7,129 bases of DNA from IMG/VR virus record IMGVR_UViG_2693429700_000008; one strand, 5' to 3'. Below the pieces are notes generated by a model, which saw only the letters and a program-made list of their open reading frames with translations, did not search any database and was not told where the DNA came from. Shown here one piece after another: positions 992 to 3,531 of this stretch. Each line of letters starts with the position of its first letter. The first letter of the stretch is position 1. The position numbers and the translations under genes are program-made. This DNA comes from a virus. Lineage: Duplodnaviria; Heunggongvirae; Uroviricota; Caudoviricetes.

Positions 992-1086
992 AAGAAATGA
1001 AGAAGGCCACGCAGTTGCGCAGCCTGATAAACCCTGGTTAAAATCCACACGATAACAACACAACAATATCAGTATCTCATGCTATT

Positions 1087-1111
1087 GCCCGAACCCATTC
1101 GGGCATTTTTT
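1087..1111 (+). terminator. Intrinsic-terminator-like hairpin, plus-strand orientation
   Basis: GCCCGAA-CCCA-TTCGGGC (7-bp stem, 4-nt loop) followed by TTTTTT on the plus strand. Confidence 0.4.
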
Positions 1112-1117
1112 ACCCAT

Positions 1118-1148
1118 AAAAAATGCCCCTCCGGAGAGGGGCATTTTT
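1118..1148. terminator. Bidirectional rho-independent terminator
   Basis: AAAAAA-TGCCCCTC-CGGA-GAGGGGCA-TTTTT: 8-bp GC-rich stem flanked by an A-run and a T-run, so a hairpin plus U-tract forms on either strand. Sits between the TerB-like/small-ORF block and the esterase gene. Confidence 0.65.
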
Positions 1149-1345
1149 GCATGCACATTCTTTTTCTTGCATGGTGCCGGGTGCCTCCCGGTGAATTCAG
1201 TATCAGCACCTGAATCCGCGATTATCACATATACCTACTTGCTGATTGCCCCTCCGCACAGGGGGATTCACCATGCAGTAGTATTTTTAATAAACAGCAA
1301 ATAAAAAAATCAAGCATTATGCAGGCTGTTTCTTTTTATCACCGG

Positions 1346-1477
1346 CTACAGCAATACCACAATGCCGCAGACCAGCACCCCATCCGCCAGCACCGACATG
1401 ATTCTGCTGGTGAAATCCACCATCACCACCAGAAACAGCAGGAGTGCAGCCACAGCCAGGCGCAGTTTTACCGTCAC
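1346..1477 (-). CDS. Hypothetical small hydrophobic (membrane) peptide, 43 aa
   Basis: GTG start at 1477-1475 overlaps the TGA of the upstream TerB-like frame (GTGA), with GGAG 8 nt upstream. Translation VTVKLRLAVAALLLFLVVMVDFTSRIMSVLADGVLVCGIVVLL, stop TAG at 1348-1346. Not in the ORF track (too short). Confidence 0.25.
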   Translation of the reverse strand: MTVKLRLAVAALLLFLVVMVDFTSRIMSVLADGVLVCGIVVLL

Positions 1478-1935
1478 AGGTGATTCTCCAGACGAAGACC
1501 CAGAACACCGGCAATCTCTTCCAGCACCTTGCGCTCTTCCGGCTCAATTTCGCCGTCTGCCTCCGCAATGGCCACCGCCACATCCAGCACATCTTCCGCT
1601 TCACGCGTATCGTGTTTCACATCCTCGATCTCACGTAACGCCGCACGACGACCAATTTTAAAGTTCGTATCCAGCTGACCGATAATGGTTGCGCTAATCG
1701 CATTAATTTCTGACGTAAACGCGGACAGCGCAGGCTGATTACGCAGTACCTGTTCGATCTTCGCTTTCTAGGAAGCCTCACATTCACCATCTGCACAGGC
1801 CACCAAGTAGGCAGCATTAATAACCGCCTGTGCCAGATCGCGTTTCTCAAACTTTCCTTTTTCCGGTTAACGTGACACACCAATAACTCTTGTCGAAAAA
1901 GCCAGCAAGCTGAAAGACCGGTATTCACAACCACC
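1474..1935 (-). pseudogene. TerB-family (tellurite-resistance TerB-like) gene remnant, disrupted by in-frame stops and a frameshift
   Basis: The frame ending in TGA at 1476-1474 translates to ...KGKFEKRDLAQAVINAAYLVACADGECEAS*KAKIEQVL...EDVLDVAVAIAEADGEIEPEERKVLEEIAGVLGLRLENHL, two ADGE-type repeats typical of TerB-like domains. It has an in-frame TAG at 1770-1768 and TAA at 1869-1867. The FFDK-like N-terminal segment (LAGFFDKSYW) lies in a different frame upstream, and no ATG is present. The N-terminal boundary is approximate. Confidence 0.5.
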
Positions 1936-1965: not shown

Positions 1966-1995
1966 GGGCACAAAAAACCCGCTCAGTGGCGGGTT
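1966..1995 (-). terminator. Rho-independent terminator downstream of the lipoprotein gene
   Basis: Minus strand reads AACCCGC-CACTGA-GCGGGTT followed by TTTTTTGTG: 7-bp stem, 6-nt loop, U-tract. Lies ~78 nt after the lipoprotein stop. Confidence 0.65.
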
Positions 1996-2072: not shown

Positions 2073-2498
2073 TTAAAACTCTGCTTTCATTTTATCCGGG
2101 AATTTTTTATTTGCAGCATAATAACTACCAAGTACATAAGCGTTCATTTGCTGCTCTACATCAACCCGACATGCCGCACTAGAACAAGCTCCACTGATAA
2201 GCCCAAAAGAACTCCCTTTAGCAGAGAGATCAGCTTTGATTTCCTCTACAGTGTTTTTCCCCATAGCAACTACACACCCTGTCACAATATATCTAGCTTT
2301 CACATCATCCATGCTAAGGATAGTAGTTTTCGCAATTTTGCTGTATCCATCATTTTTATAAACATCCATGGCAAACGCACGGCAATCTGTATAATACGGA
2401 CTTGCTTTAACTTGCGAATACTCAGGTAATTTCATACCAGCACAACCAACTAAACAAAAACCTATCGCTGCTATTAATACCTTTTTCATTACAGTCAT
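2073..2498 (-). CDS. Putative secreted lipoprotein of unknown function (moron cargo), ~137-141 aa
   Basis: ORF with lipoprotein signal peptide MKKVLIAAIGFCLVGCAG (lipobox LVGC). The real start is probably the second ATG at 2489 (MKKVL) rather than 2498 (MTVMKK). The mature part has four further Cys. The gene and its flanks are markedly AT-rich (roughly one-third GC by eye) compared with the ~50% GC phage genes around it. Not recognised as Bor, Cor, Lom or a known lysozyme inhibitor. Confidence 0.75.
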   Translation of the reverse strand: MTVMKKVLIAAIGFCLVGCAGMKLPEYSQVKASPYYTDCRAFAMDVYKNDGYSKIAKTTILSMDDVKARYIVTGCVVAMGKNTVEEIKADLSAKGSSFGLISGACSSAACRVDVEQQMNAYVLGSYYAANKKFPDKMKAEF

Positions 2499-2642: not shown

Positions 2643-2675
2643 GGCACAAAAAAACCCGCTCAGCGGCAGGTTTTT
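2643..2675. terminator. tR'-like terminator after the late promoter (weak hairpin, A-run/T-run on both sides)
   Basis: CACAAAAAAA-CCCGCTCAGCGG-CAGG-TTTTT. Minus strand gives CCGC-TGA-GCGG followed by TTTTTTT. It is a diverged copy of the hairpin at 1966-1995. Confidence 0.5.
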
Positions 2676-2703
2676 GACATTTACCAACGGTAGACATACA
2701 AGG

Positions 2704-2747
2704 CCCATCGTTGAGAAAATCTTATCCATATTTTTTGAAAAATGCAA
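2704..2747 (-). promoter_or_regulatory. Late promoter pR'-like with lambda-type initial transcribed/pause element (probable Q utilisation site)
   Basis: Minus strand: -35 TTGCAT (2747-2742), 17-nt spacer, -10 TAAGAT (2724-2719), then TTTCT and CAACGATGGG (2713-2704). As I recall it, lambda pR' has the same CAACGATGGG stretch, containing the -10-like AACGAT pause inducer. Lies ~30 bp after the Q stop. Confidence 0.5.
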
Positions 2748-2778: not shown

Positions 2779-3531
2779 CTATCTTGTCACTTTTCTCAAT
2801 TGCGATTCAGCATACGCTTCTTCCTGCCAGCACTTTGTAACCAGTTTATTAATAACGTCTGCATATCCTTTGTACCACTGATAATCCGTCAGGTCCGGTA
2901 CCAGTTTCTGGACATGATGCCGCGCCAGTGTGGTTGGTAAACGGCTAAACCGGTTGCCATTGCAACGCCCACAAATCTTATAAACAGGCACACCATGAAG
3001 CCGGGTTCTTTTTTCATCCAGGACAATACCTTTACCCTTACACCCTCTGCACGCTGTGCTGACTTCTCCCTTACCATGGCAATGCTGACATAGTTCCTTC
3101 ACCCACTCTTCCTTGATAACAGATTCCCCGCTTCTGGAGTGTTTCACCACTTCGCGCAATACATTATGAAATCCAGTACCAGCACAATGCTCACAGCGAG
3201 CCTTACTTGCCGCAGACCTGGAATAATCAGCAAAGGCAAAATTCACAAGGTAAGGGATGATCTGTAACCGGATTTCTTCACTCAATTTGTTCAATGTCGG
3301 GTTATCCAGTGCCATCGCGTAATTGAGCAGACCTTCAATCGCAAACTGAGGGTCCTGAACGCCAACTTTTGCCAGGAATAAAGCAAACCCAAGCGGTGCT
3401 TTCGACTGCACCATCCCCTGCGCAGCCATTACATCCGTAATTGTTAAACCACCCGAGCCTGTCGCCGGTGCGTCATCGCTCAGTTTTGGAGATTTCGGGG
3501 AGTAATATTTCGGTAAGGCTTCAAGGTTCAT
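2779..3531 (-). CDS. Q: Late-gene antitermination protein Q (250-aa, QuuQ-like family)
   Basis: 250-aa ORF; ATG at 3531 with GGAG 7 nt upstream; position immediately upstream of the pR'-like promoter. Cys-rich central region with four CxxCxGxG-type repeats. The family call is from memory of E. coli prophage Q proteins. Confidence 0.75.
   Translation of the reverse strand: MNLEALPKYYSPKSPKLSDDAPATGSGGLTITDVMAAQGMVQSKAPLGFALFLAKVGVQDPQFAIEGLLNYAMALDNPTLNKLSEEIRLQIIPYLVNFAFADYSRSAASKARCEHCAGTGFHNVLREVVKHSRSGESVIKEEWVKELCQHCHGKGEVSTACRGCKGKGIVLDEKRTRLHGVPVYKICGRCNGNRFSRLPTTLARHHVQKLVPDLTDYQWYKGYADVINKLVTKCWQEEAYAESQLRKVTR

Follow-up and report, generated by a model that had tools for sequence, protein, structure and literature searches.

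Late-gene antitermination in lambdoid phages is organised as a cassette in which the Q gene is followed by the promoter PR', a pause element, a terminator and the late genes (PMC9388147). The proteins that bear the name Q fall into distinct families, the Q-lambda family (PF03589) being separate from Q21 (PF06530) and Q82 (PF06323) (Yin et al. 2022, PMC9388147). In lambda, the Q-binding element (QBE) is located between the -35 and -10 hexamers (PMC6606751; PMC9388147), and the pause is encoded by a -10-like element at +1..+6, which is read by the host sigma70 and followed by a GGG at +7-9, a discriminator-like element that strengthens the sigma-anchored pause (PMC5001585). Lambda also has a -35-like element, TTGACT at -7..-2, at which sigma region 4 docks anew during Q loading and is contacted by the arm tip of Q (PMC9388147); this element is needed by lambda Q and is absent from other lambdoid late promoters (PMC6606751). 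In phage 82 the pause element lies further downstream, with the discriminator at +15-17 and the pause at +25/26 (PMC5001585), and in phage 21 two protomers bind a QBE that consists of directly repeated TGAGCA (PMC6606751). Finally, the GenBank record of phi80 (JX871397) annotates a pR' -35 hexamer TTGCAT, a Q-binding site, a -10 hexamer TAGATT and a terminator; in the phi80 sequence this -10 is followed by AACGCTGGG, and about 74 nt separate the presumed start from the end of the annotated terminator.

We analysed a stretch of DNA of 7129 nt (the window), in which all genes lie on the minus strand, so that all promoter elements are given here as read on that strand. Positions 2704-2747 are very probably pR', the late promoter of a lambdoid prophage, with its Q-utilisation site; together with the Q gene (250 aa, 2779..3531, minus strand) and the terminator tR', they would constitute a Q-lambda-family antitermination cassette of the phi80/SfV/mEp460/K-12 Qin type. 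The -35 hexamer TTGCAT (2742..2747) starts 31 nt past the stop codon of the Q gene, in the same direction; it aligns with TTGACT of lambda and is the very hexamer annotated as the pR' -35 in phi80. It is followed by a 17-nt spacer, TTTTCAAAAAATATGGA (2725..2741), the predicted QBE, which is identical to the lambda spacer TATTGAATAAAATTGGG at 11/17 positions and differs at the other 6/17, the upstream half reading TTTCAAA in the window against ATTGAAT in lambda. The -10 hexamer TAAGAT (2719..2724), aligned with lambda TAAATT, precedes a TTTCT (2714..2718) and then the 10-mer CAACGATGGG (2704..2713), which is identical in lambda. This 10-mer includes AACGAT at +1..+6 (2707..2712), a predicted sigma70-dependent, -10-like pause element with the sequence and spacing of lambda, and GGG at +7..+9 (2704..2706), to which a discriminator-like role may be assigned by analogy with lambda.

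In the alignment with lambda J02459 (in order TTGACT, 17 nt, TAAATT, TGACT, CAACGATGGG), the distance from the 10-mer to the -10 hexamer is the same in both sequences, AACGAT lying 6 nt after the -10, and the two diverge right after GGG, where lambda continues with TTAATTCGC and the window with CCTTGTATG. A preliminary description of this DNA had reported the -35/-10 pair with its 17-nt spacing, the 10-mer 5 nt further on, an identity between this 10-mer and the lambda start region containing AACGAT, and an abrupt divergence thereafter; the alignment bears out each of these observations, on the minus strand. The exact 10-mer CAACGATGGG occurs once in the window, with about 0.014 occurrences expected on both strands of 7129 nt. 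Taken by itself it is nevertheless weak evidence, because 0.55 occurrences are expected in the window when one mismatch is allowed, whereas its position and conservation constitute strong evidence. The promoter does not appear among the sites listed by a generic consensus promoter scan, since its -35 TTGCAT matches the consensus TTGACA at only 3/6 positions, and the identification of pR' as such rests on homology. Transcription is predicted to start, by analogy with lambda, at the A at position 2712 (+1). A mapped start site at pR' was sought in the supplements of the Cappable-seq, ROSE and EDL933 TSS papers and gave no match, which is not evidence of absence.

The promoter of phi80 is laid out in nearly the same way. 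Beyond the identical -35 hexamer, phi80 has a 17-nt spacer ending in CTGGA and a -10-like element with GGG at the start (AACGCTGGG); it differs in the upstream half of its spacer (TCGCGGA), in a 7-nt instead of 6-nt gap between the -10 hexamer and the pause element, and in the pause element itself (AACGCT against AACGAT). With phages 82 and 21 the locus shares the general plan, that is, a sigma70-dependent promoter-proximal pause, a Q site within the promoter and a terminator downstream, but not their particular features: the pause element starts here at +1, no TGAGCA is present in 2719-2747, and the Q proteins are unrelated in sequence. A lambda feature that was not recovered at the start region is the -35-like element, the window having TTTTCT at -7..-2 (2714..2719), which agrees with lambda TTGACT at 4/6 positions and lacks the G. 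As this element is absent from other lambdoid late promoters, we consider it a mark of lambda itself rather than a criterion for the family, and Q loading at the window pR' may, given the degenerate element, differ in detail from that of lambda.

The 250-aa Q protein had been taken in the preliminary description for a member of a family other than that of lambda Q, an assignment that is contradicted by several searches. The protein matches Pfam PF03589 (Antiterm) with E = 9.4e-54, and Pfam gives no match to PF06530 or PF06323, the Q21 and Q82 families. By BLASTP it can be aligned with lambda Q over the full length, Met1 through the C-terminal VTR (34% identity, E = 7e-41), with a single 48-aa insertion in the 250-aa protein, inside the zinc-ribbon "arm". 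A search of PDB sequences returned Q-lambda entries only (7UBM, 4MO1 and 7UBJ; E = 1.6e-36 for 7UBM), and when an AlphaFold model (pLDDT 79) was submitted to Foldseek, the best 8 matches were all Q-lambda structures (E = 1e-12 to 3e-7), the next one, much weaker, being the zinc finger of DnaJA2 (E = 0.18). Since the 250-aa Q belongs to the Q-lambda family, there is no mismatch between pause signal and Q to explain; the apparent oddity arose because the family of the protein was not recognised in the first reading. What survives of that reading is thus the lambda-type pR' with its pause inducer, GGG and nearby terminator, and what falls is the mismatched Q family. The combination of a lambda-like pause signal and a longer Q is moreover a known arrangement, as phi80 has both.

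The arm of this Q has about 45 residues more than that of lambda Q. The insertion, modelled by AlphaFold as a long beta-hairpin (residues 121-147), adds two CxxCxGxG motifs, giving four motifs of this type in the arm (Q residues ~113-160, 3052-3195, minus strand) compared with two CxxC in lambda. The arm is probably organised, to judge from its motifs, around two zinc sites in a DnaJ-like manner: the protein also matches Pfam DnaJ_CXXCXGXG (E = 6e-9), and the DnaJ zinc-finger domain likewise has four CxxCxGxG motifs, with two zinc centres. DnaJ is however a chaperone, whereas the motifs are embedded here in a predicted DNA- and RNA polymerase-binding antiterminator whose fold match to the DnaJ-type finger is weak. 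Expansion of the arm is common to phi80 gp17 and to the 252-, 269- and 273-aa Q types, with variable inserts, and the lambda TTGACT -35-like element is degenerate in the expanded-arm types compared (250-, 252- and 273-aa). The phi80 protein gp17 (Q; 269 aa) belongs to the Q-lambda family and has an enlarged multi-CxxC arm; it is 42% identical to the 250-aa Q in the alignment and its arm insertion is longer. Guo and Roberts reportedly compared the DNA binding of lambda Q and phi80 Q in 2004.

The same module is widespread. It is found in the cryptic prophage Qin of E. coli K-12, whose YdfT (QuuQ) is 95% identical to the 250-aa Q, and, with Q proteins 95-99% identical, in mEp460, SfV, Ayreon and fifteen Stx2c-converting phages; promoter, CAACGATGGG and terminator are conserved. 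The records of Qin, SfV, mEp460, Ayreon and the Stx2c phages annotate Q and sometimes the terminator, but leave the promoter and pause site unannotated. In K-12 MG1655 (L453; NC_000913.3, ~1,642,350-1,642,460, minus strand) the unannotated promoter, pause element and terminator lie downstream of ydfT, with a predicted start at 1,642,422 on the minus strand; the leader, about 60 nt long, points towards the convergent genes ynfS/cspF. In the STEC literature on Q and pR' variants we found no mechanistic description of the 250-aa Q type.

We extended the comparison to 588 loci encoding Q-lambda-family proteins, taken from viral and genome collections, by examining the DNA past each Q gene. In 155/215 distinct promoter regions past Q, AACGAT is spaced 6-7 nt from a preceding -10 hexamer, and the pause element is followed by GGG in 136 and by GGA in 56 of these 215 regions. 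The element accompanies nearly every Q type sampled (207, 250, 252, 254-260, 269, 273 and 276 aa). In contrast to this common pause element, the -35/-10 spacer hardly varies among loci with one Q type but changes from one type to another: T(A/T)TTGAATAAA.TTGGG for lambda, TTTTCAAAAAA..TGGA for the 250-aa type, AAGTGGCGAT.TTTGTT for the 254-aa type, AAATTCGGAAAACTTGG for the 269-aa type and TTTTTCC.GAATCTGTG for the 273-aa type. A shared pause element with a type-specific spacer is understandable because the host sigma70 reads the former and the latter, as in lambda, would hold the QBE. Within the spacer, the -10-proximal TGG is common to the window, lambda and phi80, and the upstream half differs; by analogy with lambda, the TGG would fit QBE positions 11-13, contacted there by the arm, and the variable upstream half would fit positions 1-4, contacted by the HTH.

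Two further observations came out of this survey. One locus (L057, IMG/VR UViG 2565956633_000004) is a natural hybrid in which a 250-aa Q with its own promoter and spacer is followed by the lambda 6S leader, reading TTAATTCGCTCGTTGTGG..., and as the joint falls exactly at AACGATGGG, the shared pause patch also serves as a joint for recombination and mosaicism. In the 273-aa Q type of E. coli prophages (L212-L291), many copies carry single-base variants of the pause element (AATGAT, AACAAT, AATAAT, AAAGAT and AACTAT) on otherwise identical leaders, which may reflect relaxed selection in defective prophages or weaker pauses that are tolerated.

Downstream of the start region, the preliminary description had placed a terminator at short distance, and this proved correct. 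RNAfold predicts a hairpin at +38..+63 followed by a U7 tract ending at +65, which we designate tR' (2648..2675, minus strand), and homologous sites are annotated as terminators in Ayreon and SfV. The leader RNA would thus measure about 63-66 nt, compared with 194 nt in lambda. That it is much shorter than the lambda leader had been rightly noted, but it is not unusual: it represents the commonest arrangement in the family and is also that of phi80. Indeed, the terminator lies at +63..+65 in 43 of 53 distinct 250-aa-type loci, and the first terminator found in the survey ends at +65 in the 273-aa type, at +54..+71 in the 252-aa type and at +55..+59 in many loci whose Q is that of lambda, a distribution of leader lengths to be read as a lower bound since the simple terminator finder used in the survey overlooked both tR' of the window and that of lambda. 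Leaders of about 55-75 nt are the norm and the commonest arrangement in the Q-lambda family, and the 194-nt 6S leader of lambda is a long variant. A 91-aa open reading frame at 2422-2697, starting at leader position +16, was considered as a possible counterpart of lambda orf-64 and rejected, as it has no ribosome-binding site and overlaps both the 5' hairpin described below and the terminator.

Between tR' and a second terminator lies a gene for a predicted lipoprotein of 141 aa (2073..2498, minus strand; phrog_4748), for which Pfam gave no match. The second terminator (1966..1995, minus strand), detected by a terminator scan and annotated in Ayreon, is a direct repeat, 92% identical, of the tR' core, the two copies of the repeated core (1972-1995 and 2649-2672) being 677 nt apart. 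In relatives devoid of the lipoprotein gene, a single terminator is joined directly to the sequence that follows the second copy here; the moron is present after tR' in Ayreon and absent in SfV. The lipoprotein gene has the look of a moron cassette, for which the terminator repeat served either as the point of insertion or as the means of exchange. In an E. coli chromosome 99.9% identical to the window, the genes run in the order Q (under the name ydfT), 141-aa lipoprotein, TerB-family pseudogene, DUF3927, nanS-like esterase, holin, lysozyme RrrD, Rz and terminase, which is that of a complete late operon. The TerB-family gene (1474-1836, minus strand), annotated as a pseudogene in that chromosome, has an in-frame stop in the window; next comes the gene of a 43-aa DUF3927/TciB-like membrane peptide (phrog_1470; 1346-1477, minus strand). 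Between the DUF3927 gene and the nanS-like esterase, two segments match prophage small RNAs of Rfam above the gathering score, AgvB (anti-GcvB; 96.5 bits; 1050-1111, plus strand) and STnc100 (146 bits; 1112-1302, minus strand), with bidirectional terminators on their flanks.

For the leader of the window, the minimum free energy structure given by RNAfold contains a hairpin (-6.4 kcal/mol; 2686..2712, minus strand) whose stem starts with the first nucleotide, +1, and in which AACG at +1..+4 pairs with CGUU at +24..+27 and +6..+10 with +18..+22. Such complementarity is seen in nearly all leaders, between the first 4-7 nt of the transcript and a segment whose end falls at about +20 to +33. As a single MAFFT alignment of 94 leaders placed two spacing classes out of register, gapless classes were analysed separately and complemented by an alignment-free swap test. 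Among the 28 lambda-like and 254-aa-type leaders, 96% of the cells are paired, a proportion of 19-52% being obtained with the partner segment slid; among the 43 leaders of the class of the window, the corresponding values are 95% and 10-44%. The 28-leader set includes a change from C3-G21 to U3-A21 in five sequences, and none of 500 shuffles reaches its observed score, whereas in the 43 leaders of the class of the window covariation is not above that of shuffles. Over 166 distinct leaders, the swap test shows a class-specific complementarity: CGTT is present in 84% of AACGA leaders, CATT in 74% of AATGA leaders, TGTT in 100% of AACAG and AACAC leaders and TTCTT in 100% of AAGAA leaders. From one leader family to another, the two sides co-vary as AACGA/TCGTT, AATGA/TCATT, AACAG or AACAC/TGTT, AACAA/TTGTT and AAGAATG/CATTCTT. 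Rare single-base variants (AAAGA, AATAA and some AACAA) retain CGTT and are uncompensated, and most one-sided changes produce G.U wobbles.

We tentatively suggest, while giving this slightly less than even chances, that in the late leaders of the Q-lambda family the pause element, once copied into RNA, takes part in a 5'-terminal hairpin which is conserved and under selection. When +17..+36 of lambda pR' was replaced, Q still modified the paused complex and drove pause escape or arrest in vitro, in a study where the hairpin is unmentioned (PMC4005639); the stem is therefore not needed for Q loading. The most likely role of such a hairpin would be to shield the leader RNA and the late mRNA from 5'-end-dependent decay, a reading we prefer because the stem starts at nucleotide +1. 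It is based on the fact that 5' stem-loops influence mRNA stability in E. coli. Less probably, a DNA hairpin in the non-template strand would help the scrunched paused complex to release sigma; neutral homogenisation of the quasi-palindrome is another alternative. No description of a co-varying 5' hairpin was found in the searchable literature, a scope that excludes the lambda work of the 1970s-80s and makes its novelty uncertain.

From the sequence anatomy, the family membership and the gene order observed here, we infer the start, the pause and the read-through as follows. Sigma70 RNA polymerase would start at A2712, given the spacing identical to that of lambda; sigma region 2 would then re-bind the non-template AACGAT at +1..+6 and region 1.2 the GGG at +7..+9. 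The polymerase would scrunch and pause at about +16..+18, where T17-G18 together with G8 fits the G-10/Y-1/G+1 pause consensus. The Q protein, as a member of the Q-lambda family, would bind its type-specific site in the -35/-10 spacer, load onto the paused complex and travel along with it. Transcription in the absence of Q would end at tR' and yield a leader RNA of about 65 nt, and with Q it would read through tR', the lipoprotein moron, the second copy of the terminator and further terminators, to reach the nanS-like esterase, holin, lysozyme, Rz and structural genes that follow in the observed order. Two things explain the sharing of CAACGATGGG with lambda: the Q-pR' module as a whole is of common descent, and this part of it is read by the host sigma70 and not by Q.

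Three other explanations were weighed against this antitermination cassette. The first, which we regard as unlikely, holds that the main product and purpose of the module in a lysogen is, beside late-gene control, the short pR'-tR' RNA acting in trans as a small regulatory RNA. The layout is typical for such an RNA, with a 5' hairpin, a single-stranded AU-rich segment at +28..+37 and a U-tailed terminator. Transcription from pR' promoters is constitutive and ends at tR'; a short pR'-tR' RNA of Stx phages (StxS) is an Hfq-binding regulator (PMC7547250), and the 6S RNA of lambda, for which such a role in trans has been suggested, is Hfq-associated (bioRxiv 10.1101/2024.10.31.621285). The leader, however, matches no Rfam family, and close relatives differ in the stretch that separates its 5' hairpin from the terminator hairpin, which argues against a conserved seed.

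A decaying remnant, in which pR' and qut are still recognisable but Q, promoter or pause is non-functional in a possibly defective prophage, seems to us rather improbable. The pseudogene of the TerB family with its internal stop, other truncated genes and an IS1203 insertion are consistent with decay, as are the 95% identical copy in the cryptic K-12 prophage Qin and the degraded pause elements of many 273-aa-type copies (AATGAT, AACAAT, AATAAT, AAAGAT). The Q reading frame is nonetheless intact, the promoter, AACGATGGG and terminator match those of the viable phages mEp460, Ayreon, SfV and Stx2c at about 95% overall identity, and the downstream lysis and packaging genes are annotated as intact. 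Given the pseudogene and the IS element of the prophage, as seen in the 99.9% identical genome, activity of the cassette in this particular strain is not assured. Lastly, a chimeric module, in which a lambda-type pause and start region would have recombined beside a Q of a different family, is highly implausible. In its favour, Q is longer than lambda Q (250 against 207 aa) and shares only 34% identity with it, the sequence departs from lambda right after GGG and recombination at exactly that joint does occur, as in the L057 hybrid. Against it, searches by Pfam, BLASTP, PDB sequence and fold all place Q, over its full length, in the Q-lambda family, homology to lambda extends to the part of the promoter that precedes the 10-mer, with the same spacings and 11/17 identical spacer positions, AACGAT is found at +1 with nearly every sampled Q type of the family, and neither Q21-type TGAGCA repeats nor Q82-type geometry is present.

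We conclude that the module is an ordinary late-gene antitermination cassette of the Q-lambda/phi80 kind, so far uncharacterised by experiment. The finding in itself matters little, and removes an apparent paradox. It does place a late promoter, a pause site and a terminator in a very common module of E. coli, Shigella and Stx2c phages, including ydfT of K-12 Qin, that is annotated only as "antitermination protein". The four-knuckle zinc arm, taken with the degenerate -35-like element, suggests a variant way to hold sigma region 4 during loading, and it is a speculation that the longer arm compensates for the missing -35-like element. More generally, these loci offer a natural illustration of a Q-utilisation site in which the part read by sigma70 is common to the Q-lambda family while the spacer predicted to be read by Q diversifies. 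The co-varying hairpin could, for its part, affect the stability of late transcripts, including those of Shiga toxin 2c, as well as that of the short pR'-tR' RNAs, a group that includes known regulators.
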